Shown: in pieces, positions 31,255-44,104 of the stretch
Position numbering within the stretch: the first letter of the stretch is position 1
How the letters are laid out: each line of letters begins with the position of its first letter
NCBI GenBank assembly: GCA_965199495.1
Contig: CBDASK010000003.1
Location: forward strand, 3,680,001-3,744,000
Direction of reading: 5' to 3'
Origin: Abditibacterium sp.
Lineage (GTDB): Bacteria > Armatimonadota > Abditibacteriia > Abditibacteriales > Abditibacteriaceae
DNA length: 64,000 nt
Notes under the pieces: model-generated
Seen by the model: the letters and a program-made list of their open reading frames with translations, nothing else
What the model was told of the DNA's origin: nothing
The model's database searches: none
Translations under genes and position numbers: made by a program

Positions 31255-34200
31255 TTACGAATCGCTCTCCGGCGCATCATTTTTGGGTTTGCGCGCGGGC
31301 GACGATTTTTTCGCGTTACGCTTGGCTTTCGCTCGTTTGGGCGCCGGTTTTTTGGCTGGAGTCGTTGCGTCTGTTGTGTCACCTGCGCGCACGCGCGGCG
31401 CTTTGGTGACAATCGTCGGTGATTCGCCCGCTCTGGCGATTTCTTCCATCGGTCTCGCGTCCGCTTCTTCTTCGGTTTCCAATCTCAACTCTTCCAATGT
31501 CTCGATTCTCGGTTCCGAATTGACAATCGGACGAAGTGGCTCGAAGTTGGTGACCTGTTCCGGCGTCGCGCTCGAATTTTCGACTTCGGTTGGCGGCAAT
31601 TCGGGCTGGGCCGCGACAATCGGCGCTTCCTCGACATCGCTTGCGTCGAACTCGGCGCCTTCGTCGGCGGCGCGTTGCAATTTCTGCAACGCTTCGAGTT
31701 CCGTGCCCGCCGTCATCGAAATTGTTTCGCCGCCAACAGCGTCGGGCGCTTCGACGGTTTCGATTCTATCGGCGGGCGGCACATCGGGCGCAAGTTCGAT
31801 GGATTCCGCGTCATCGGTGGGCGGTGTGGCTGCTCCCATCGTCACTGTCACCGTGTGTGTTTTCCCATCGTCTTTGAGCGGAATGATTTTGTCTTTCATC
31901 AATTTTCCATCAATTTCAACCGTCGCGACGCCGTTTTGCGCGCCGCTCGGATTAACGACTTCGATCTGGTAAAGCCCGCTTCCATGCTTGTAAGTCAGCT
32001 TGAAACCTTTCCAATCCGAAGGAATCGCCGGATTGAGATGCAATTTATCGCCGCGTTTGTCGAAGCCCAAAACGCCCTCGACCCACACGCGATACATCCA
32101 GCCGCACGAGCCGGTATACCACGACCAGCCACCGCGCCCGACCTGGCCCTCCAAATCGTAAACGTCCGCCGTCACGACGTATGGCTCGACCTTGTAAGTC
32201 TGCACCGCTTGCGGCGTGCGCGCGTGCTGAACCGGGTTCATCAGGTTTAGCGTCTCGACCGCTTTGTCGCCGCGCCCCGCGAGCGCATAAGCGTAAGCGA
32301 CCCAGCACGCGGCGTGCGTATATTGCCCGCCGTTTTCGCGCACGCCGGGCAGATAGCCTTTGATATATCCGGGGTCTTTCTCGGTATGGTCAAATGCGGG
32401 CGTGAACAATTTAACGATTTTCTTTTCTTTGTCAATCAAATGCTGCTCGACCGCATCCATCGCCATACGCGAACGCGCGGCGTCGCCGCCGCCCGCGATC
32501 ACGCTCCAACTTTGCGGCAACGAATCGATTTTGGCCTCGTCGCTGAGATGCGAACCCAACGGCGTGCCGTCGTCGAAATATCCGCGACGATAGTAAGCGC
32601 CGTCCCACGCGTTCTTCTCGATGCTTTCGACGTAAGTTTGCGCGCGTTTGCGATAATCGCTCGCGAGCTTTTTCTCGCCGCGTGCATCGCAAATTTCGGC
32701 GAAGCTGTTCAAAACGTCCACACAAAACCACCCTAACCACACGCTTTCGCCTTTGCCCTCGATGCCGACGCGATTCAAACCGTCGTTCCAATCGCCGCCG
32801 CCAATCAACGGCAAACCATTCGGCCCACTCGTGCAGCCTTTCTCGATGGCACGGCGGCAATGCTCGAAAACGCTCGCTTTTTCTTCGGAAATTTGCGGCT
32901 CGAAATACTTTTCGTGTTCGCCTTCGGCCAAAACGTCGGCGTGTAAAAACGGCACGACTTCGTCCAAAATCGCCGTGTCGCCCGTCACTTTGACGTATTG
33001 CGCCGTGCCATAAGGCAGGAACAACAAATCATCGGTAATCAGCGTGCGCACGCCCGCATCGCCGGGCGGATGCCACCAATGTTGCACGTCGCCTTCCTCG
33101 AATTGATGCGCGGCGCAGCGCAGAATTTGGTCGCGCGCGGCTTTGGGATATAGCGTGGTTAAGGCCAGCGAATCCTGCATTTGGTCGCGGTAGCCCCACG
33201 CGCCGCCGCTCTGATAAAACGCCGAGCGCGCCCAGATGCGGCAACTCAAAATTTGGTAGGGCAACCAACGGTTGATGAGGAAACTGACCGATTTGTCCGG
33301 CACCTCGACCTGTAAAGTGCTTTCCATGTCGTCCCACCAAGTGCGCGTGGCTGCCAAAGCGCGGTCGGCGCTGCCTTTGGCGCGGAAATCGTTGACGAGC
33401 GAGCGCACCTGTTCCACGCTGTCGGCTTCGCCCAACATAAACGTGACTTCGATGCTTTCGTTCGGCGCCAGTTCAACGGGCACTTGCAACGCGGCGCACG
33501 CATCTAATCCGGCGCCGACGCTGTTTTGTAGCCTCTTGCGGCGCAGCGAAAACGGGTTGATTGGCGAGCCGTTGCGTCCCAGAAATACCATGCGATCCGC
33601 CGTGAACGACTGCGGTTGGGGCGTCGCGCTGGCAAATGCCAGGCGATGCGGAAAGTTCGGATTATAAGCGTTGCGCGCCATTAACGCCGAACTCTGTGTG
33701 TCCCAACTGGTCACGATTTGCATGCGCGTCTCTTCGGCGTGCGTGCCCAGAATCCACTGCGCATACGAAGTCGCGCTCAACTTGCGCACGCGTCCGCTGC
33801 GGTTGGTCAGCTTCAACGTTTGCAAGCGAATCGGGCGTTTGGCGTCGTCCATCGGCACGAACGCGGTTAGCGTTTGCTCGATGCCGTGCGAAGAATGCTC
33901 GAACACCGAGTAGCCCTGACCGTGGCGTGCGCGATAGGCTTCGTTTTCGCGGATCGGCAGCGAAGTCGGCGTCCAAAACTCGCCGGTTTCTTCGTCGCGA
34001 ATGTAAATCGCTTCGTCGGCGGTATCCGAAACCGCGTCGTTGTTCCAAGGTGTAATGCGGTTCGCCTGCGAGTTGCCATACCACGCGAAACCCTGGCCCG
34101 CCTCGGATACTAAGGCGCCGAAATCTTCGTGCGCGAACACGTTAATCCACGGCGCCGGAGTCACATCATTCGGCCCCAGATAAATCGCGTATTCCTCGCC

Positions 34201-37200
34201 GTTTTGCGTGAATCCGCCCAATCCATTGAAGTAGGGCAACTCCATAAACGGCAGCGACAACGCGGTTTCGGTTCGCGTTTTCTCGGTCGGCACGAAGCGC
34301 GGCGGCGCATCCATGTCGTCGTTGACCAAGCCCAACTGCTGCGAAATGCCGCCGCGCGCCGCCACCAAAACCACGCGCGCCACGCTCAGCAAAAGCGTCA
34401 TATCTTCCGGCGGAATCGTATCTGCTGAGCGCAAAAACACGCCGCCCGGCTTTTCGGTGCCGGTATAAGGCGTCGAACCTTCGATGAGTCGGCGCAGCGT
34501 TTCGGTCAAGTCCTGCGCGTAGCCACCGGCCTGTTCGTTGACGATAACCAAATCCACTTTCATGCCGCGCACGCGCCAAAACGTGTGCGCGCGCAACGCC
34601 TGACGCACCACGATTAAATCGCGCGCGTTGTCAATGGCGACCAGCAAAATCGGCAAATCGCCCGAAATGCCATAGGCCCACAACCCGCTTTGCCCCTTGT
34701 CGTTGGCGCGAATGCGCGAGGCGGGCGCGCGTAGAGCCGCGTTGGGATACAATAAATAGCCGCCCAACTGCTGAAACGACTGCGCCTCGTCGGCCTTGAT
34801 TTGCAGATGATGCAGTTCCAATTGCGAATGCGTCCAAGCTAAATCGAACGCCCGCTCGCAGGCGCCAAAGTCGCCGTAACGCTCGATTAAACGATTGGCG
34901 TTCTCCTGCGAATCGGCGGCGCCCGTGACCCAGCAAATCTGAACGCGCTCGCCCGGCTTGAGCGTCGCCTCGCGGCGTAGCGAAAAGCACGGATCCAAAA
35001 CCGCGCCCGTCGTGCCCGACAATTGTCCGTCCAAAGCGACCGGATTGCGCGCGCTGCGCGTCCGTCCCAGGAACTGCAAGCGGTCGGTTTCCCACTGCGC
35101 CGCGCCCAACGGCTTCGACGTGGCTGTTAAGTGGACTGCCCAAACCGGCGTATCTTTGGGCTGACGCAAACGGCGCCACGCCAAAAGCGCCGCACGGTCT
35201 TCGATGACGCCGGTTTGAATGAACAACTTGTTGAACGCTGGATGCGCGCGGTCGGTGGCGTGCGGCGCGAGCGACAATTCGGCAAACGATGTCGCTTCGA
35301 CGCGCCGTTCGCGGCTCGAATGGTTGACGAGCGTTAAGCGGCGCACTTCGACGTTATCTTCGGGCGAAACGCAGATTTCCAGGCGCGATTCGATGTCGCT
35401 ATCGTAGCGGTCGAACTCGACTTTTTCCGGCTTGAAACTGACGCCCATGTTGCGCGCTTTACGTTTGAGAGGTTGGTGCGTCGCGCTCCACGTCAGGTTG
35501 GAATCGAGGTCGCGCAGATACAAGAATTGGCCCCAATTGTCGCGCGTTGGGTCGGCGCGCCAACGCGTGATCTCAAATTCGCCCCAACGCGAAAATCCCG
35601 CGCCCGCCGCCGTCATCATCACGTTGTAGCGCTCGCTGCCCAGCAAATGCGCGCGCACGGCGGGCGTATCGGGCGCCGTCGGGCGCTCGACGGCATCGCC
35701 GCCCAAATTCTCGACGTGCGTCGGGCGCACGTTGTTGGCCGATGGGTTTTCCAAAACCGGTGGCGCTTCGGGAATCTTCTCGAACAAAAGCGGCTCGGCG
35801 GCCTCGACGTAAACATCGGAGTGAAAGCGCCGCTGGACGGCGCCATCGCACAGCACGTTTTGCATCGCGAGCAGCGCCATGCCCTGATGGTGAACCATAA
35901 AGCAGCGCACGATGGCGCCGCGCTGATCTTTGGAGGCCGCGCGTCCTCCAACGCGCGCCAGTTCGCCGACATCGGCGGCGACGACCGAATCTTCGTCCAA
36001 ACGCTGGCGCGTAAAATCTATGGATTCGTAGAACCCATAATCGCCGCGCGCGCCGATTTTTTCCAATTCGCGCAGGTTCTTCAGCGACGCCTCGCGATTC
36101 ACCATCAGCGCCATCATCGTGGCGTAGGGCGCGATCACCAAATCCTCGTCCAAGCCGCGCTTGAGGCCCAGACCCGGCACGCCGAACGCTTTATATTGGT
36201 AGGTATTATTGGAGTCAATCGCCGAATACGCCGCTTCCGAAATGCCCCACGGAACCCTGCGCCGCGCGCCGTAGGCGATCTGAGCAGCCACGGCGACGTT
36301 CTCGGCGCGTTCCAACAGCGAATTATCGAACGCTTTCTGGAACAGCATCGGCATTAGATACTCGAACATCGTGCCGCTCCAACTCATCAATGCCGGGCCA
36401 ACCGGCGTTTGTCCAAATCTGCGCCCCAACGCCAGCCAATGCTCGGCGGGCACGTCGCCGCGCGCGACCGCGCAAAACGAGGCCAAACGGCATTCGGAGG
36501 CCAGCAAATCGTAGAACGAGGTGTCCAACTGTTGCGATTCGACGTTAAATCCGATCGAGAACAATTTGCGCTGTTGGTCGAACAAAAAGCCCATCTTCAT
36601 TTCGCCCGCGATGCCGCGCGAACGGTCAATTACGTCGTCGCATTTGCCCAGCATTTCGCCCGCCAACCAGCGCGCGTTGTCCCATTCGTCGGCGATTTTC
36701 TGCGCCCATTCGCGCACCGGTTCGGGGGTTTGTGGCAAATGACGGCGCTCCAACAATTCGTTTAAACGCCCGGCTTCGCCACGCGCCAATTCGGTCAGCG
36801 ACGGCGAAAGCTCGAAGATTTCGCGCCGCAAATCGGGCGCGTCGGCGCCCAGTGATAATAGAAATTCGTCGGCGGGTTGCGCCAATATTTCGAGCCATTT
36901 GCCATAGCGCGAAACGCTTTGCATCCATAGTTCCAATTGCGTTTCGAGTTGCGCCGCCCAATACGAAACCGGCGTGATAGTAAAGCGTGGGTCGGTCGTG
37001 CCCGCATCCAGATTGGAGCGCGAACGCTGGCTGGCGCGGCGCGGCAATTCGCGCATCGAAAGCGAGCGGCTGAGCGCGACAATCGGCGCTTCCAAGCGGC
37101 GCAACGTCTCGAAAATATCGCGCTGCGAACCGTGCGGCGCCCCGGCCAACTGGCGAATTTCGCTCAGTTCCGCCTCAAACGTCGCGCGCTCATCGCCCAG

Positions 37201-40200
37201 CGCGTTTTCCAGCAAATTCAAAACATCGAGCAAGCCGCTCAACGATTTGCCGGTAAACATCGGCGCGCGATACAATTCTTTCATCGAGCGTGCCATCGTC
37301 CACAAACTGCCCAGCAAGTTGCCCGAATCTACGGTCGAAATGTAGCGCGGCAACAACGGTTTTGCGTCGAGGGAGCCATACCAGTTGTAGAAATGGCCCT
37401 GAAACTTCTCCATTTCGTCGAAAGTCTGCAACGTCTGGTGCGCGCGTTCGGCGACTTCATCCAACGTCAGCCAACCGAAATCGCGCGCTGCGACACACGC
37501 CAAAAGCCACAATCCCATGTTGGTCGGCGAAGTCCGTTGCGCAATTTCAACATTCAAGGCTTCCTGGTAGTTATCGGGCGGCAACCAATTGGTCTGCGGC
37601 CCGACGAAATCGTCGAAATAGCGCCACGTTTGCCGCGCGATGGCGCGCACATACGTTTCATCTTCGCGCCCAATTGCGTCGGTCTGGCGTTCTTCGCGCC
37701 CGCCCGCCAGCCACCAAATCGCCAAAGGCGCGACCGCCCACGCCAACAGATACGGCGACGCCGCGATAATCGCCGTGGCTCCGCGTTGCATCACGGCCAA
37801 AGCGATGGCGCCTGACAGCGCCGAGCCGCTCGCCATGCGCAACATAAACGCGACTTCTCCGGCGCTGCCGCCTCGGTAAGTCGAGGCGGCGGTCTGCCAT
37901 TCGAGCATCAATTTGCGCGACACCGATTTGCGAAACAGCGAGCGTCCGATGGCATCCAATGACATTCCGGCGCGATGCAAAAGCAGCGAAGTCTCGATGG
38001 CCGCGCGAATCAAACCGCGCCCGATTTCGTGGCGCCCGCGCAAAATCCGGTCGGGCCGCGTCGTCAAACGCGTGAAAACGTTAATCGCCGTCGGCCACAA
38101 AACCAGACCGGCCACGCCCGCCGAAGCAGCCACGGCGGCGGGGCCACCCGCCAGCCAGCCGCCAATTAAGAGCGCCACGCTGGCCGGAGCCAAGAGCGAA
38201 CGGCGCAGATTATCGGCGACCTTCCAACGGTTGAACCGCGAAAGCGGATTCTTCTCGCGCCCACGCGGCGTCGGAACCGAGCCAAATGCCCAGTCCGCGA
38301 TCTGCCAATCGCCGCGCATCCATCGGTGATCGCGCTTGAGCGACGCCTGATATTGCGGCGGAAAATCGTCCAACAGAACAATGTCCGAAGCCAAACCAAC
38401 GCGAACGTGCGCGCCTTCGATCAAATCGTGACTTAAAAGCGTCGCGTCGGGAAAACGGTTGCCTAAAACGCGCTCGAAAACTTCCAGATCGTAGATGCCT
38501 TTGCCGTGATACGAACCCTCGCCAAACGCGTCCTGATAAACATCCGAAACCACGTTGGTGTAGGGATCGAGGCCCGACGCCGTCGAGAACAAACGCGAGT
38601 AACGCGTCGCCATCGCGCTTGGTAACATCGTGTCCACGCGTGGCTGAATTAAGGTATAGCCGCGCTCGACCAAGCCATCTTTGCCGATATGCGGACGGTT
38701 AAGCGGATGGGCAATCGCCTCGATCATGCGGCGCGCGGCGCCGTAGGGCATCTGCGTGTCGGCGTCGAGCGTGATGACGAATTTGATGCCGTCCAACTCG
38801 CCCGGCTCGCCTTCGACGACGTGCATCTGTTCGGGCGATGGGTTGCGCGCCCCCAGCAAGTAGCGGTTGAACTCTTCCAATTTGCCGCGTTTGCGCTCCC
38901 AGCCCATCCAGCGTTCTTCGGTTTCGCTCCAACGGCGCTCGCGGATAAACAGGAAAAATTGCGGCCCATATTGCGCGTTGAGATTGGCAATCGCCGCGCG
39001 CGCCGCTTCCAAACGCTCGGCGTCGTCGGCGGTCTGGCGCGACTGGGCGTCGGTGTAATCGGCCAAAAGCGCGTAACGCAAATTCGGGTCGGTGTTGGAC
39101 AGATAATGAATTTCCAATTGCCGCGCGTTCTCGACGCCATCTTCGGCGCTGCCCAAAAGCATCGGAATCGCGATGATGGTTTTCCAGCGATTGGGAATTC
39201 CGTCTTTGAATTCCATCTTGGGCAGTGCCCGTGGCTGCATCAAACGCGTGACCGCGTAGTTGACGACTTGCGTCGCGACTTCGGACGAGGGCAAAAACGA
39301 CAAAACTCGGAGCGGCCACGGCAACGCGCCGCCGACGGCGCGCGCGAAGCGTTCGATGGCCCACATCGCCGCGCCCGTCCCCAAAGTGACGCCCGCGAAA
39401 TACCACGCGCCGGGCCGGTAGCGCAACCAGCGCCGCCATTTTCCGGCGACGGTGTTGCGAAATCCAATCGAAAGTTCAAATGGCACGCGTCCGTCATCTA
39501 TTAAGTAGTAGCCGACGTGGCTGACTGGCTGGTAAATCAAAGTTTCGTGTTCGCGCTCGCCGTGCGAAGGCGCCGCGCGTTGCATCCGCTCGCGCCCGGC
39601 GAGGGCCGCCGTTTGCACCACGCGCTGCGAAATCGTGATTTCGCCCAATTCAGAGTGGCGCGCCAACTTCTCGATTTTTTTGCGATAACGGTCGCGCGTG
39701 GCAAAATCCATCGAGCGATAAACGCCCGCTGGGTCTTGCGACAGAATTTGGTCAACCAGACTCAACTGCTCAAAACACTCGCGCCAATCCAGATTGGCCA
39801 GAAAGCGCATCGTCGTGATCGCGTTGCCAATCGAAACCGCGTCAACCGCCTGACGCCGTTGCTCGCGCGATGTCAATTCGCCCAGCGGCGCCGACATTTT
39901 ACGCTCCAACCAACTGCGCACCGGCCCCAGCGCGGCCTCTTCGTCGAATAAATGCGAAACCAAGCGGTCGGCGAAATGCGGCGCGATTTTCTTTTGTTCG
40001 CGGGAAAGTTCCGCCAGAAGCGGCAGAATTTGATCGGGTTCGCGAAACGCCGCCGCGAGCAATCGGTTGGCCCAGAAATCCGAACGCTCGCGTTCGCGCT
40101 GGCGCTTGTCGGCCTGCGCGGTTAATCGGCGCAAATTTTCGATAATCGCCAGCCGCAGCATCAGCGGCAACGCCCACAGTTCGCCGGTTGTCAAGTTCGA

Positions 40201-41142
40201 GCCGCCCGCCTGATAATGATGAATAAACGAGACTAAAACCTCGCGGTCGAAGCGCCCATCGGTGGCGGCGACGAGTTCCGACGCCAGCAGATAAACGCGC
40301 GGCACTTGCGTATAACGACCGCTCGCGGCGGCGGGCAGTTCTCGCAAAAACTTGGGCGTCAGGTTGCGCTCGACATCCTTGATTTGCCCTTGCACGACAT
40401 AATTGTTATCCAGTAACCATTCCGCCGACAGCGAAACCGCTTGATCCAAACGCGCTGCTTCGGTCAAACCAGCGGCCACGCGCGCGATGATCACGCGATT
40501 TTCGCGCAGACGACTGAGCAAAAAAGTGCCATCGCTTTTGTGTGTTTTGCCATGACGCGCGCCCAGTTCGAGCGCCAAATCGCGCAATTGGTCGGCGTTT
40601 AAAACGTCGCGGCGTAGCGGCGCCTTGGTCAAGTCGAACGGGTCGGGCGCATTGCGTTCGAGGAAAACGGCGGGGCCGCCTTCGCCCTCGCGCAAAATGG
40701 CGAGCGCGTCTTTGAGATAATTGGATGGCGCGCGCACGATAACCAAAGTTTCGCCACCCATCACCGAATTGCGATAGCGATGCAACGTCGCATCGGGCAA
40801 GCGCGCTGCGCCGTGGCCGCTCAACACGTAACCGATGCCGCCGCCAACAATCGCGCCCGCGATGGGAAACGCCGGAGCAATCGAACGCGGCGCCTCGACC
40901 AAACGCCCGACCGCCACCGCGATGCCCGCGCCCATCGCAGCGCCCGCGCCCGCGCCTGTAATACGTGGCGCGCGGGGGCGCACCACGCGCGGCTGCGAAA
41001 CGCTATTTTTGTCGGTTTCGCGCTCGCCCGCCGCTCGCGTAATCAGCGCGATTTGCGTGTAACCTTGGCGCTGCAGATTGCCGTAAGCGGCCTGAGCCGC
41101 CGAGGCGTCGCCAAAAAATGCCAGAATAGAACCGTGTGTCAT
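31255..41142 (-). CDS. ndvB: Cyclic beta-1,2-glucan synthase (GT84 plus GH94 domains; Cgs/NdvB/ChvB)
   Basis: EWLLDN, WMGWERKRGKL, LLSHDLIEG, LPPDNYQE, RTSPTNMGL, SWSGTMFEYLMP, YQSGGAWGYRDQ, GDWNDG, RENGGQYTH. Confidence 0.93.
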   Translation of the reverse strand: MTHGSILAFFGDASAAQAAYGNLQRQGYTQIALITRAAGERETDKNSVSQPRVVRPRAPRITGAGAGAAMGAGIAVAVGRLVEAPRSIAPAFPIAGAIVGGGIGYVLSGHGAARLPDATLHRYRNSVMGGETLVIVRAPSNYLKDALAILREGEGGPAVFLERNAPDPFDLTKAPLRRDVLNADQLRDLALELGARHGKTHKSDGTFLLSRLRENRVIIARVAAGLTEAARLDQAVSLSAEWLLDNNYVVQGQIKDVERNLTPKFLRELPAAASGRYTQVPRVYLLASELVAATDGRFDREVLVSFIHHYQAGGSNLTTGELWALPLMLRLAIIENLRRLTAQADKRQRERERSDFWANRLLAAAFREPDQILPLLAELSREQKKIAPHFADRLVSHLFDEEAALGPVRSWLERKMSAPLGELTSREQRRQAVDAVSIGNAITTMRFLANLDWRECFEQLSLVDQILSQDPAGVYRSMDFATRDRYRKKIEKLARHSELGEITISQRVVQTAALAGRERMQRAAPSHGEREHETLIYQPVSHVGYYLIDDGRVPFELSIGFRNTVAGKWRRWLRYRPGAWYFAGVTLGTGAAMWAIERFARAVGGALPWPLRVLSFLPSSEVATQVVNYAVTRLMQPRALPKMEFKDGIPNRWKTIIAIPMLLGSAEDGVENARQLEIHYLSNTDPNLRYALLADYTDAQSRQTADDAERLEAARAAIANLNAQYGPQFFLFIRERRWSETEERWMGWERKRGKLEEFNRYLLGARNPSPEQMHVVEGEPGELDGIKFVITLDADTQMPYGAARRMIEAIAHPLNRPHIGKDGLVERGYTLIQPRVDTMLPSAMATRYSRLFSTASGLDPYTNVVSDVYQDAFGEGSYHGKGIYDLEVFERVLGNRFPDATLLSHDLIEGAHVRVGLASDIVLLDDFPPQYQASLKRDHRWMRGDWQIADWAFGSVPTPRGREKNPLSRFNRWKVADNLRRSLLAPASVALLIGGWLAGGPAAVAASAGVAGLVLWPTAINVFTRLTTRPDRILRGRHEIGRGLIRAAIETSLLLHRAGMSLDAIGRSLFRKSVSRKLMLEWQTAASTYRGGSAGEVAFMLRMASGSALSGAIALAVMQRGATAIIAASPYLLAWAVAPLAIWWLAGGREERQTDAIGREDETYVRAIARQTWRYFDDFVGPQTNWLPPDNYQEALNVEIAQRTSPTNMGLWLLACVAARDFGWLTLDEVAERAHQTLQTFDEMEKFQGHFYNWYGSLDAKPLLPRYISTVDSGNLLGSLWTMARSMKELYRAPMFTGKSLSGLLDVLNLLENALGDERATFEAELSEIRQLAGAPHGSQRDIFETLRRLEAPIVALSRSLSMRELPRRASQRSRSNLDAGTTDPRFTITPVSYWAAQLETQLELWMQSVSRYGKWLEILAQPADEFLLSLGADAPDLRREIFELSPSLTELARGEAGRLNELLERRHLPQTPEPVREWAQKIADEWDNARWLAGEMLGKCDDVIDRSRGIAGEMKMGFLFDQQRKLFSIGFNVESQQLDTSFYDLLASECRLASFCAVARGDVPAEHWLALGRRFGQTPVGPALMSWSGTMFEYLMPMLFQKAFDNSLLERAENVAVAAQIAYGARRRVPWGISEAAYSAIDSNNTYQYKAFGVPGLGLKRGLDEDLVIAPYATMMALMVNREASLKNLRELEKIGARGDYGFYESIDFTRQRLDEDSVVAADVGELARVGGRAASKDQRGAIVRCFMVHHQGMALLAMQNVLCDGAVQRRFHSDVYVEAAEPLLFEKIPEAPPVLENPSANNVRPTHVENLGGDAVERPTAPDTPAVRAHLLGSERYNVMMTAAGAGFSRWGEFEITRWRADPTRDNWGQFLYLRDLDSNLTWSATHQPLKRKARNMGVSFKPEKVEFDRYDSDIESRLEICVSPEDNVEVRRLTLVNHSSRERRVEATSFAELSLAPHATDRAHPAFNKLFIQTGVIEDRAALLAWRRLRQPKDTPVWAVHLTATSKPLGAAQWETDRLQFLGRTRSARNPVALDGQLSGTTGAVLDPCFSLRREATLKPGERVQICWVTGAADSQENANRLIERYGDFGACERAFDLAWTHSQLELHHLQIKADEAQSFQQLGGYLLYPNAALRAPASRIRANDKGQSGLWAYGISGDLPILLVAIDNARDLIVVRQALRAHTFWRVRGMKVDLVIVNEQAGGYAQDLTETLRRLIEGSTPYTGTEKPGGVFLRSADTIPPEDMTLLLSVARVVLVAARGGISQQLGLVNDDMDAPPRFVPTEKTRTETALSLPFMELPYFNGLGGFTQNGEEYAIYLGPNDVTPAPWINVFAHEDFGALVSEAGQGFAWYGNSQANRITPWNNDAVSDTADEAIYIRDEETGEFWTPTSLPIRENEAYRARHGQGYSVFEHSSHGIEQTLTAFVPMDDAKRPIRLQTLKLTNRSGRVRKLSATSYAQWILGTHAEETRMQIVTSWDTQSSALMARNAYNPNFPHRLAFASATPQPQSFTADRMVFLGRNGSPINPFSLRRKRLQNSVGAGLDACAALQVPVELAPNESIEVTFMLGEADSVEQVRSLVNDFRAKGSADRALAATRTWWDDMESTLQVEVPDKSVSFLINRWLPYQILSCRIWARSAFYQSGGAWGYRDQMQDSLALTTLYPKAARDQILRCAAHQFEEGDVQHWWHPPGDAGVRTLITDDLLFLPYGTAQYVKVTGDTAILDEVVPFLHADVLAEGEHEKYFEPQISEEKASVFEHCRRAIEKGCTSGPNGLPLIGGGDWNDGLNRVGIEGKGESVWLGWFCVDVLNSFAEICDARGEKKLASDYRKRAQTYVESIEKNAWDGAYYRRGYFDDGTPLGSHLSDEAKIDSLPQSWSVIAGGGDAARSRMAMDAVEQHLIDKEKKIVKLFTPAFDHTEKDPGYIKGYLPGVRENGGQYTHAACWVAYAYALAGRGDKAVETLNLMNPVQHARTPQAVQTYKVEPYVVTADVYDLEGQVGRGGWSWYTGSCGWMYRVWVEGVLGFDKRGDKLHLNPAIPSDWKGFKLTYKHGSGLYQIEVVNPSGAQNGVATVEIDGKLMKDKIIPLKDDGKTHTVTVTMGAATPPTDDAESIELAPDVPPADRIETVEAPDAVGGETISMTAGTELEALQKLQRAADEGAEFDASDVEEAPIVAAQPELPPTEVENSSATPEQVTNFEPLRPIVNSEPRIETLEELRLETEEEADARPMEEIARAGESPTIVTKAPRVRAGDTTDATTPAKKPAPKRAKAKRNAKKSSPARKPKNDAPESDS

Positions 41143-41254
41143 AAAATCGAAAAAGTCGGCGCGTGCCAATTCTTTGGGTTCTTAGTATGAAAGGTAAGGC
41201 GCCGAAATGTGCGCGTTACAAATGAAAATCGTGCGCCTGAAGCGCTACGCGTTG

Positions 41255-41400
41255 AGGCGAATAAATTCGCAGCCACAATTAGGTGTCGGCCTGCGCCGAC
41301 ACGTCGCAACATGAACGAAGCAAAACGGCTCTTCGTTTAGTGTGTTCTCTTCGTGTCGGCGCAGGCCGACACCTAATTATGGCTGCGAATTTATTCGCCT
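41255..41400. repeat. REPIN-like palindrome left of the transposase (family E)
   Basis: aggcgaataaattcgcagccacaattaggtgtcggcctgcgccgacacg and its near-perfect reverse complement. Confidence 0.9.
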
Positions 41401-41448
41401 TTCTGCGCGATGCTATAATTCAACTCGTCCCCATTTCAAATTCAACTT

Positions 41449-41901
41449 ATGCCCAACACCAACAGGCGTCTCGTTCGCGGCGACAAAATTGAGATTTACG
41501 TTCACTTCATCTGGACGACTTTCGACCGGCAAGAATGGATCGCGCCTCATCTGGAGGCCGAACTCTTTCCGCTTATCAACGCGATGGGCCAGCGTCATGG
41601 TTGCAAAACGTTGGCGATTAACGGTGTCGAAGATCATCTGCATTGGCTGGTCAAGTATTCTTCCACCACGCTGACCTGCGATGTGGCCAAAGATTCCAAA
41701 GGCGCTTCTTCCAAATGGATGGGCGAGCAATTCGAATCGTTCAAGTGGCGCCCGACTTATGCGGCCTTTTCGGTCTCGCGCTGGAATGTGCGCAAAATCA
41801 TGAATTATATCGCGCGCCAGAAAGAACATCACGCTAATGGCACGACCGATAAACGGCTGGAAAGCGAGGACGAGTGGCTGGAAATCGCGGATGGGGAGTA
41901 G
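41449..41901 (+). mobile_element. tnpA: IS200/IS605-family HUH (Y1) transposase, REP-associated (RAYT-like)
   Basis: YVHFIWTT..R, DHLH (HUH motif), KGASSKW, NYIARQKEHH (catalytic Tyr); no tnpB; palindromes on both sides. Confidence 0.88.
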
Positions 41902-42007
41902 GCGAATAAATTCGCAGCCACAGTTAAGTGTCCACCTTCGTGGACACGGAAAATGGGTGTGTCGGCGAAGGCCGACACTTAACTGTGGCTGCGAATTTAT
42001 TCGCCTA
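41899..42007. repeat. REPIN-like palindrome right of the transposase (family E)
   Basis: taggcgaataaattcgcagccacagttaagtgtc ... gacacttaactgtggctgcgaatttattcgccta. Confidence 0.9.
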
Positions 42008-42017
42008 AACTAACCCC

Positions 42018-42662
42018 GTGAATTTATCGCTCTTTGCCGATGATGCAGCCACGCCGCCTGTATCGCCGCTAAATCTGCCCAAACATCTGCTCGACATCAA
42101 TACGATTTATCACGAGCCGAACGTTTTCGAGTTCGCGCGCGGCAGAGAAATCCGCGCGTGTTTTCCCGACTCCAATCTCATCGAAGTGCCTTCGCACTGG
42201 CAAATTCCCGAACTTCATGGCGACGCCGCAAACGATGCCGATTGGCTCGGCATCAAGCGCGAAACTTTGGTTCTGGGCGTGCGCAAGGCGATGAAAATGG
42301 AAGCCAACACGCGTTCGAGCGATTGGATCGCGCCCGCCGTGGCTAACGGTTGCGCCAGCGCGTGCGCGTATTGCGTGGCGGCGGGTACGCTTATTTCGAC
42401 GCCACAAGGCCAAGTTCCCGTCGAGCAAATCGAGGATGAAGCCGAAGTAATCGCTTTCGATAGTTCTTCGGGACAACTCGCAACAGCTCGCGTTTGCGGG
42501 TTGGCTTCGCGGGAAGTAAGCGAAGTTCTCGAAATTGATCTTGGCGACCGAGTGCTTCGTGTAACGGCAGAGCATCCGCTTTGGACGCGTAGAGGCTGGG
42601 TAAAAGCCGGAGATCTAACTCCAGACGATGAAGTTCTGTGTGATGAAAGCAGCACAGAGTAA
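42018..42662 (+). CDS. Spore photoproduct lyase family (radical SAM) N-extein (118 aa) fused to split intein N-fragment (96 aa, from 42372)
   Basis: IEVPSHWQIPELHG, LVLGVRK, DWIAP..ANGCASACAY, then intein block A CVAAGTLI, block B VTAEHPLW, GWVKAGDL, stop. Confidence 0.9.
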   Translation: MNLSLFADDAATPPVSPLNLPKHLLDINTIYHEPNVFEFARGREIRACFPDSNLIEVPSHWQIPELHGDAANDADWLGIKRETLVLGVRKAMKMEANTRSSDWIAPAVANGCASACAYCVAAGTLISTPQGQVPVEQIEDEAEVIAFDSSSGQLATARVCGLASREVSEVLEIDLGDRVLRVTAEHPLWTRRGWVKAGDLTPDDEVLCDESSTE

Positions 42663-43224
42663 TGCCGTTTTCGACATCGCACTTGTCATCGGGGAAGAGC
42701 GCGACAGGCAAAACGTGATGCGCTTGCAACTGCGTTTCGCTTCCGCAAATGCGGCAACAGCCGTCTCTCTCCAAAACGGCTCGCGCCCATTCTTTGCCAC
42801 TGCGCCGTTGTCGAAAGCCGCTTTGACTGCGTCCGTTGACATAATTGGGATTGCCCGCGCCACAATGCCGCTTCGCTATAATCGCCGCTTGAGCGCGCCG
42901 TCCCGCTCCGGCGCGCGAACACTGCGGGCAATAGCCGTAGCGGTTTTCATTGGTTTTGAACGGGGCGTCACACACGCGGCACCCCTGCCACTTGATAGTT
43001 GAGCGAGCAATGGTTCGGTCAATGGCAAACAAAACGCCTTCCCATCGGCGAACAGTGCGCGCATCGCGGCCCAGATAAAGCGCGGCCTGCCCGTAAGAAG
43101 CCACAACTTTGAACGGCATTGCTTCCATATTTGCTAAGTGTTGGCGGCACGTCGCGCAGCAAAACGCTTGAGGCGTCCGCTTGCCACACCAACCGCACGC
43201 CAGCGTGCCATTTGTCTGTCTCAT
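42391..43224 (-). CDS. HNH homing-endonuclease-like protein with Zn-finger motifs, antisense between the intein halves
   Basis: CxxC pairs; GAGNPNYVNG; WARAVLERD..CRICG...AHHV...ENGITLCCFHH (HNH core). Confidence 0.82.
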   Translation of the reverse strand: MRQTNGTLACGWCGKRTPQAFCCATCRQHLANMEAMPFKVVASYGQAALYLGRDARTVRRWEGVLFAIDRTIARSTIKWQGCRVCDAPFKTNENRYGYCPQCSRAGAGRRAQAAIIAKRHCGAGNPNYVNGRSQSGFRQRRSGKEWARAVLERDGCCRICGSETQLQAHHVLPVALFPDDKCDVENGITLCCFHHTELHRLELDLRLLPSLYASKADALPLHEALGRQDQFRELRLLPAKPTRKRELLRVVPKNYRKRLLRLHPRFARRELGLVASK

Positions 43225-44104
43225 GTTGAAATTCCGAAAAATTCAATCCATCCGCCGCGTGAGCGAACCACAAACCGTTTACAACTTTCATGTCCCCGGC
43301 CCGCAGTCGTATCTGGCCAATGGAATTGTAACCCATAACTGTTATGTCGCTCGTCGCAAAGGCCATGCTAACCCGATTACGACGTTCGTCAACATCGAAC
43401 AAATGACGAAATATCTGGCGCGTCACGCGATGCGTCAGGGCGAAAAAAGGGCAGCCACGCCCGCCGACGACAAATTATGGGTTTACGAAATTGGCTGCAA
43501 CTCCGACACTTCGATTGATGCGGCGATTTCGGATAACGTGCGCGATTTTGTCGAACTGTTTAGGACGTTGCCCAACGCCAAAGGCACTTTCGCCACCAAG
43601 TGGGTCAACCGCGCGATGTTCGATTACGACCCGCAACGCAAAACGCGCGTAAGGTTTTCCCTCATGCCCCAGCGCATGGCGAAGTTAGTTGACGTTCGCA
43701 CTTCGCCAATTAGCGAGCGCATCGCGGCGATGAACGATTTTTACGAAGCGGGCTACGAAGTCAATGTCAACTTTTCGCCGGTCGTCATCGAAGACGGTTG
43801 GTTGGAGGCTTACGACGAACTGTGGGACGAAATGAACGACGTTTTGCGGCCCGAAGTGAAAGCCGATTTGGTGGCCGAAGTGATTTTCCTGACGCATCAC
43901 GCCGGTTTGCACGAAGTCAATTTGCAGTGGCATCCGCGCGCCGAAGCCGTCTTGTGGCAACCCGCAATGCAGGAGCGCAAAATCTCGCAGGGCGGCGGTA
44001 TCAACGTGCGTTACAAAGTGAGTTTGAAGCAGCCTTTGGTCGCGCAGTTCGTGGCGCGAATGCGCGCTAAGTTGCCGGAGTGTCGCGTGCGTTACGCGTT
44101 TTGA
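43223..44104 (+). CDS. Split intein C-fragment (39 aa) fused to spore photoproduct lyase family C-extein
   Basis: MLKFRKIQSIRR...VYNFHV...YLANGIVTHN|CYVARRKGHANPIT; WVYEIGCNSD, FATKWVN, RVRFSLMP, EVIFLTH, RVRYAF. Confidence 0.9.
   Translation: MLKFRKIQSIRRVSEPQTVYNFHVPGPQSYLANGIVTHNCYVARRKGHANPITTFVNIEQMTKYLARHAMRQGEKRAATPADDKLWVYEIGCNSDTSIDAAISDNVRDFVELFRTLPNAKGTFATKWVNRAMFDYDPQRKTRVRFSLMPQRMAKLVDVRTSPISERIAAMNDFYEAGYEVNVNFSPVVIEDGWLEAYDELWDEMNDVLRPEVKADLVAEVIFLTHHAGLHEVNLQWHPRAEAVLWQPAMQERKISQGGGINVRYKVSLKQPLVAQFVARMRAKLPECRVRYAF

Follow-up and report, generated by a model that had tools for sequence, protein, structure and literature searches.

The DNA analysed here (the window) is a 64,000-nucleotide stretch of Abditibacterium sp. 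(assembly GCA_965199495.1, contig CBDASK010000003.1, positions 3,680,001 to 3,744,000 of the forward strand), in which a single host gene is divided by a split intein and a gene for an HNH endonuclease lies antisense between and across the intein halves. By its profile matches, the host gene encodes a repair-type radical S-adenosylmethionine (SAM) enzyme of the spore-photoproduct-lyase family TIGR03886. The N-extein (42018..42371, plus strand; 118 aa, start uncertain) ends in GCASACAY and matches TIGR03886 positions 1-94 (E 1.2e-36), while the C-extein (43340..44104, plus strand; 254 aa), whose first residue is Cys, matches positions 83-346 (E 1.8e-119). Jointly the halves cover the full length of the family (346); each alone misses its cut-off, which empty orthologues pass. 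The gene is broken between GCASACAY and CYV, directly ahead of the radical-SAM motif's third cysteine, and the putatively mobile cassette of 968 bp (42372..43339, plus strand) sits directly 5' of the third Cys codon of CxxxCxYC. Its limits are given by blastn against G004, a genome of the same genus with a syntenic locus, where both flanks are ~85% identical, exactly 42372-43339 is missing and the empty allele has the clean junction TAT/TGC. Relative to this allele, the ratio of non-synonymous to synonymous divergence (dN/dS) is 0.17 for the N-extein and 0.11 for the C-extein, by which measure both exteins are under purifying selection. Judging from the motif, the C-extein Cys would act as splicing nucleophile as well as third iron-sulfur ligand. 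The host gene is single-copy in this genome at E < 1e-30. Run X1 yields contigs that cover 42102-43997 without a difference, which argues only against assembly error, as X1 may be the source sample. Furthermore, some loose ends from X1 and X2 run through CAY-CYV uninterrupted, indicating empty alleles of other organisms in the same samples.

The N half of the intein (42372..42662, plus strand) consists of 96 aa followed by TAA, has a net charge of -12 and carries Cys1 and T65-x-x-H68; it scores 36.7 bits with Pfam PT-HINT (cut-off 27.7) and 19 bits with TIGR01445, below the cut-off of 24.5. The C half (43223..43339, plus strand; 39 aa, net charge +4) contains VYNFHV and THN, with HN at its end before the extein Cys, and is recognised by TIGR01443 (32.8 bits, cut-off 15.6) and Pfam Intein_splicing (E 3.4e-7). 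All class 1 features (Cys1, TxxH of block B, block F, C-terminal His-Asn and +1 Cys) are present, and C1, T65 and H68 are invariant in 7/7 aligned N halves. As had been predicted, no plus-strand frame links the N and C halves: TAA at 42660-42662 is followed by further stops, and a plus-strand open reading frame (ORF) in another frame (42628-43002, 124 aa) stops within the spacer. The plus-strand products are accordingly a 214-aa extein-IntN and a 293-aa IntC-extein. In annotation pipelines, the N half is called 'Hint domain' or 'hypothetical', and the nuclease goes unnamed.

On the minus strand, the HNH endonuclease gene (42391..43224; ATG at 43224-43222) encodes 277 aa. The original prediction of such an antisense protein, with CxxC pairs and GNPNY, inside the split intein is borne out by a match to Pfam HNH_2 (21.8 bits, just above the cut-off of 21) and by PHROG 144 'HNH endonuclease', which 18/18 members match. 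Twelve database proteins are similar to it (51-93% identity over 72-97% of length). The protein has an N-terminal part (residues 1-139; 42808..43224, minus strand) with the CxxC pairs, two short helices and GNPNY, in which C82, C85, C99, C102 and N125-P126-N127 are invariant in 18/18 members and which probably comprises DNA-binding modules. The catalytic core follows (residues 140-199; 42628..42807, minus strand) with C157, C160, H169, H170, N186, C191, H194, H195 and H199; H169, H170, N186, H195 and H199 are invariant in 37/37 distant members. Residues 188-199 already lie opposite the last codons of the intein, and residues 200-277 (42391..42627, minus strand) form an overprinted helical tail, as delineated by the selection tests below and by the model. 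The model has a mean pLDDT (predicted local distance difference test) of 86.8, with the tail at 80-95, and its top-ranked fold matches are HNH nucleases (best Z 6.3, root-mean-square deviation 5.1, 83 aligned); those to the N-terminal part are weak (Z < 3). For the tail, no family or atlas match was obtained (best feature score 0.79, below 0.8), nor any match in a sequence search of solved structures at E < 0.03.

The dual-coding stretch measures 272 nt including both stops (42391..42662), close to the 270 nt estimated earlier, although the weight of dual coding had been underrated. The last ~90 HNH codons lie opposite codons 7-96 of the N half (90 of its 96 codons); HHTELH of the HNH protein is the opposite strand of DEVLCDE of the intein, and the intein stop falls inside the HNH codons for NGIT. 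Codon position 1 faces position 1, and position 2 of each protein faces position 3, the wobble site, of the other, so that conservation of intein wobble sites measures selection on the tail. Across 11 loci, one per group of near-copies (L062 being left out owing to indels), four-fold wobble identity in the overlap is 61% (1134/1857), compared with 27% (164/604) in the C half and 35% (418/1201) in the C-extein; in the non-overlapping part of the HNH gene it is 27% (256/957, 8 loci). Since wobble identity is low in the rest of the cassette, recent cassette spread is not the cause of the conservation in the overlap. Changes silent in the intein are conservative in the tail (BLOSUM -0.79 vs -1.23 expected; 80 distinct changes, p 0.0005, transitions and transversions matched), with the reservation that neither the pairwise counts nor the permutation allow for relatedness among the loci, so that both overstate significance. 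Random synonymous recoding of the N half leaves the antisense frame open in 0.4-14% of cases per locus (2.6% for this window), which, together with the twelve similar database proteins, marks the ORF as more than a product of chance. The tail frame is open in 11/11 loci up to a point 19-28 nt from where the intein starts. Four-fold GC is 0.47 in the overlap, 0.87 in the HNH gene and 0.94 in the extein of L035, and 0.43, 0.71 and 0.78, respectively, in this window; in base composition, the overlap lags behind the drift of the remaining cassette towards that of the host. Conserved RNA structure was considered as a source of the wobble conservation and rejected (3/48 pairs compensatory, covariation term +0.86). 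By these substitution patterns, purifying selection acts on all three frames and, within the overlap, on each of the two readings.

The arrangement is not confined to this window. Of 15 loci retrieved with an HNH alignment, 13 agree in host gene, insertion site, strand and phase, the overlap being 263-272 nt where measured. Adding this window, G012 and the phage L062 (171 kb) and merging near-copies (L031/L035/L042/L045; L041/L044) gives 12 distinct loci, with the HNH gene on the minus strand in 12/12; they are spread over this genus, Rubrobacter, cyanobacterial-labelled contigs (P0042 = L037, P0056 = L039) and the one phage. Within the genus, the host gene is found in nine of 13 genomes, six of them empty, two split with the antisense HNH gene (G000, G012) and one carrying a contiguous mini-intein (G003). 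The N-extein is joined to this intein half in 69 proteins, of which 63 terminate once the N half is complete and six are contiguous mini-inteins of 132-136 aa; an in-frame nuclease occurs in 0/69, although the word-indexed search could miss a rare form. The comparison with related genomes proposed earlier thus yielded empty alleles and contiguous mini-inteins at the same site, and no in-frame HNH. Genome searches gave matches in 4/301 genomes of this phylum, 2/401 around G301 (the second, L061, to the core only) and 2/104 around G302. Viral scans with A1, A8, P0013, P0099, P0103, P0122 and P0128 returned nothing or matches to the HNH core only, as did the phage collection (one core-only match) and the plasmids (none). 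Of the distant or short HNH-plus-tail proteins, only P0111 (L041) and P0117 (L062) could be placed on DNA, and both overlap the intein.

Loci that have lost either reading serve as natural controls. The contiguous mini-inteins of G003 and G264 retain an antisense tail remnant with stops; in G264, the tail is nearly intact, while all of the HNH gene upstream of it is gone. On the IntN tree (91 columns only), the seven contiguous rows are scattered and need six changes, at least four forced by starred branches, and re-fusion has therefore occurred several times. As read from these sequences, the split intein reverts to a contiguous one by deletion of the nuclease. In the reverse case, L033 (Ktedonobacterales label) and L043 have the core and tail outside the host gene, with the tail at 52-54% aa; their divergence is that of a single-frame gene (0.62/0.68/0.40 at the three codon positions), and their intein frame contains 5 and 8 stops. 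Each is truncated on its upstream side close to a contig end and so may be dead now. Six further HNH-plus-tail proteins of 140-175 aa, for which the source DNA was not found, may be additional escapees.

The history of the element appears to differ from that of its host gene. Occupied and empty alleles interleave on the extein tree (five changes, at least three forced), and this window pairs with L034 by intein (98/93) and by HNH (97/87), and with the empty G004 by extein (100/100). In L039, four-fold GC is 0.23-0.47 in the cassette and 0.89 in the extein. Such patchy occupancy and discordant history are indirect signs, drawn from sequence comparison, that the cassette is mobile; the composite mobile unit proposed originally agrees with them, as it does with the empty alleles in six of the nine gene-bearing genomes of the genus. 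With respect to polarity, the intein half shows homology to the broad class of Hint domains and the tail has no match outside its own family, which suggests that the tail is the newer frame. Relatives without the tail (four examined among 150 listed) share the GxxNPNY motif and HNH core and end just after the last His, and the nearest of them are separate proteins of 212-251 aa with their own starts, pointing to a free-standing, phage-type HNH ancestor.

We consider it probable that the locus is a mobile split intein with its own antisense homing nuclease. The oppositely charged halves (N acidic, C basic) would associate and splice in trans, restoring the iron-sulfur motif, while the HNH protein would be made from a minus-strand transcript beginning within the C half or C-extein. 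Copies of the gene that lack the cassette would then be cut or nicked by the nuclease close to the junction and would receive the cassette through repair. As for its origin, a free-standing phage-type HNH gene may have recombined backwards into a mini-intein at the HHTELH/DEVLCD joint. Such a joint would have supplied the intein stop and removed that of the HNH gene, the HNH frame being read on through the antisense strand of the intein, and this read-through may have turned into a selected helical extension packing on the HNH core. Later loss of the non-overlapping HNH part would re-fuse the intein into a contiguous mini-intein. In a further reading, whose probability we put a little short of even, the tail would have arisen de novo antisense to an intein fold, turned into a structural or DNA-recognition part that the nuclease requires, and afterwards moved out of the overlap, persisting in HNH genes with no intein behind them (L033 and L043, and probably the six short proteins).

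One CATG shared as start codon by both strands had been pointed out earlier. The CATG at 43222..43225 is indeed a start codon on each strand, the HNH ATG (43224-43222) and the C-half ATG (43223-43225) having two bases in common; nevertheless, it is shared in only three (L001, L004 and L034) of the ten distinct loci in which both starts can be placed, two further loci not being placeable. The starts are head-to-head in all loci, 3-55 nt apart in six of them and overlapping by 6-36 nt in the phage. L001, L004 and L034 form a starred group of the HNH tree, and the CATG is kept despite one extra codon on each side in L001. On comparison of these loci, the shared CATG is a compaction in one lineage, a local quirk rather than a defining trait, and it is the 272-nt dual coding that stands out as the conserved and selected feature. 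In 10/13 rows examined, the C half begins with A+T-rich codons (GC at most 0.38; 0.29 in this window), which could help initiation on both strands. The earlier remark that neither start has an obvious Shine-Dalgarno sequence is true but weak, as only 11% of 1869 long ORFs in this genome have one, against 4% in the control (a crude first-ATG count). Sigma-70-like sites on the minus strand number two against 1.1 expected; the one upstream of the HNH start (43392-43365) is at chance level. Inspection by eye revealed no suitably spaced TANNNT hexamer for leaderless starts on either strand of L001, L004 and L034. Read-through from a convergent neighbour was rejected as a general source of the HNH transcript, the next gene being on the host-gene strand in L035, L037 and L062.

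Several observations weigh against a mobile split intein with a functional antisense nuclease and a selected tail. Apart from the non-independence of loci and the marginal HNH_2 score mentioned above, Foldseek with the HNH model gave no match at E < 0.001, no conserved promoter of the HNH gene was found, and the clustering of occupied versus empty alleles does not differ from shuffles (115/500). Three of the 13 host-gene loci carry a damaged HNH gene (deletion and stop in L032, frameshift in L038, insertion in L042). The tail folded alone reaches a pLDDT of only 53.6, which does not support a domain of its own and makes it better called a core-dependent extension. L033 and L043 group among overlap-bearing bacterial copies with unstarred support (90/90). 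Furthermore, wobble identity of G003 to L004 is 0.73-0.93 over codons 16-60 despite loss of the HNH gene, for which the alternatives are recent loss, recombination or another constraint. The last point, together with the poor folding of the isolated tail and its lack of family or atlas matches, would suit a real HNH core with a tail that is passive read-through, in which the frame need only remain stop-free, or its DNA is held by another constraint, and its residues are irrelevant. A passive tail should gain early stops, whereas it is open in every locus compared; the conservative-change bias, the composition lag, the lack of RNA covariation and the retention of the tail in L033 and L043 after decay of the intein frame likewise speak for selection on its residues, and we regard passive read-through as unlikely.

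The remaining alternatives concern origin and present function. Inversion in place of an in-frame HNH segment of an ordinary intein would explain why the HNH gene lies at the usual insertion point of intein nucleases, between the N- and C-terminal splicing blocks, and in-frame HNH inteins do exist according to the excerpted text of bioRxiv 10.1101/2025.01.02.630785. None was recovered for this intein by the word-indexed search, though, and its contiguous forms are all mini-inteins, while the closest relatives without a tail are independent proteins, each having a start of its own; of the two origins first suggested, reverse invasion hence fits the data, while inversion is the least favoured of the live alternatives and distinctly improbable. 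Marginally less improbable, and still doubtful, is domestication, in which the HNH protein no longer homes and the antisense gene or transcript regulates the repair enzyme (as antisense RNA or through C-half translation). The head-to-head starts in all loci and the CATG common to three are compatible with it, and the cassette of this window, being near host composition, may be a long-term resident; against it stand the invariant catalytic residues, the repeated loss or breakage of the HNH gene, the lack of the cassette in most relatives, the varying start spacing and the signs of horizontal movement. Finally, an assembly artefact or decayed pseudogene, suggested by the failure of either half alone to pass the TIGR03886 cut-off, is refuted by a layout common to twelve distinct loci, by the low extein dN/dS and by the identity of the X1 contigs.

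The reading as a mobile split intein with an antisense homing nuclease has partial precedents. In fractured genes (Dassa et al., 2009; PMC2677866), a host gene is broken by a split intein and a separate nuclease gene lies between the halves. Similar to the present case, the excerpted account has two ORFs in original order and locus, oppositely charged halves and hosts in DNA metabolism; in contrast, the three coding regions there are on the same strand, the nucleases are GIY-YIG or Vsr-like rather than HNH, and 27-51 non-coding bases follow the N half, with a C-half overlap of 6-69 bp, against an N-half overlap of 263-272 nt here. The present element also differs from those described there in occurring in bacterial chromosomes as well as in phage. 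Gosselin et al. (bioRxiv 10.1101/2025.01.02.630785, citing Gorbalenya 1998 and Gogarten 2002) report inteins whose LAGLIDADG or VSR-like nucleases are anti-sense; these share the opposite-strand nuclease, the proposed free-standing invader and phylogenetic signs of continued spread; their frame is contiguous, however, with the nuclease ORF typically outside the splicing domain, whereas here the intein is split and the HNH gene runs across 90 of the 96 N-half codons. By host gene only, the locus can be likened to the 48 inteins of SplB/COG1533 radical SAM proteins in Actinobacteria (PMC4760082), whose hosts are of the photolyase/spore-photoproduct-lyase type, and the excerpts of that source mention no split form or antisense nuclease. 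In Aeromonas phage Aeh1 (nrdA-a/mobE/nrdA-b), an HNH gene likewise divides its host gene in two; as outlined in PMC2677866, it is co-transcribed with the host halves and, unlike here, involves no intein or long dual coding. A description of the present layout was not found in the open-access literature, with the limit that the supplementary tables of Gosselin et al. lay outside the search and could hold overlaps. The layout thus differs from the published ones found, combining fractured-gene-like function with an antisense HNH gene that overlaps the splicing domain.

The family combines a datable polarity (old intein, new tail), natural controls that have lost either reading and copies across phyla and a phage, which together make it well suited to testing how overprinting gives rise to new protein sequence. 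To our knowledge, bacteria rarely have long antisense overlaps in which both strands show evidence of selection. If the tail did escape, the family would record invasion, overprinting, dual selection and escape of the new part, plus repeated reversion from split to contiguous, the opposite of the usual direction. Re-fusion of split inteins is illustrated in any case, and ~60 naturally occurring versions of a small split intein (96+39 residues) become available. Moreover, splicing is predicted to take place at the iron-sulfur cysteine, where it would be an absolute gate on the activity of the repair-type enzyme.

Some minor observations accompany these loci. NCBIfam NF038136 gives a weak match at the host gene/intein. 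In run X2, record 12 is a near-identical low-depth contig with 126 foreign letters joined at window position 42612, within the overlap (an insertion or a chimera). The N-extein of L003 (G003) lacks ~60 codons between two EPN/EAN-like tripeptides, through deletion or assembly collapse, and its mini-intein may be a mosaic. Inserted DNA, presumably insertion-sequence-like, interrupts the HNH gene in three loci (L042:323-1510 and the regions upstream of the match in L033 and L043). L064, L065 and L066 are contiguous inteins with a same-strand, out-of-frame ORF bearing HNH-like motifs inside, in host genes that we take to be phage terminase-like. A distant paralogue of the host gene, L027 (G000:C3:1704367-1705191; 24% identity), is found in many genomes of the family, and an 1886-aa ORF at G000:C3:1532249-1537909, possibly a ribonucleotide reductase by our reckoning, has two intein C-terminal motifs.

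Around the host gene, a convergent lipid-kinase gene overlaps its 3' end by 13 nt (44092-44104). Upstream, the block 41222-42015 has long palindromic repeats on both sides of a Y1 transposase gene (41449-41901; IS200-like/REP-associated matches) and looks like a REP/RAYT module; ~200 nt stand in its place in G004, and a 32-nt palindrome arm has 17 matches in the genome (at most 3 mismatches, both strands counted). Further upstream, an ORF of 3304 aa (31255-41169, minus strand) presumably resembles a cyclic beta-1,2-glucan synthase.

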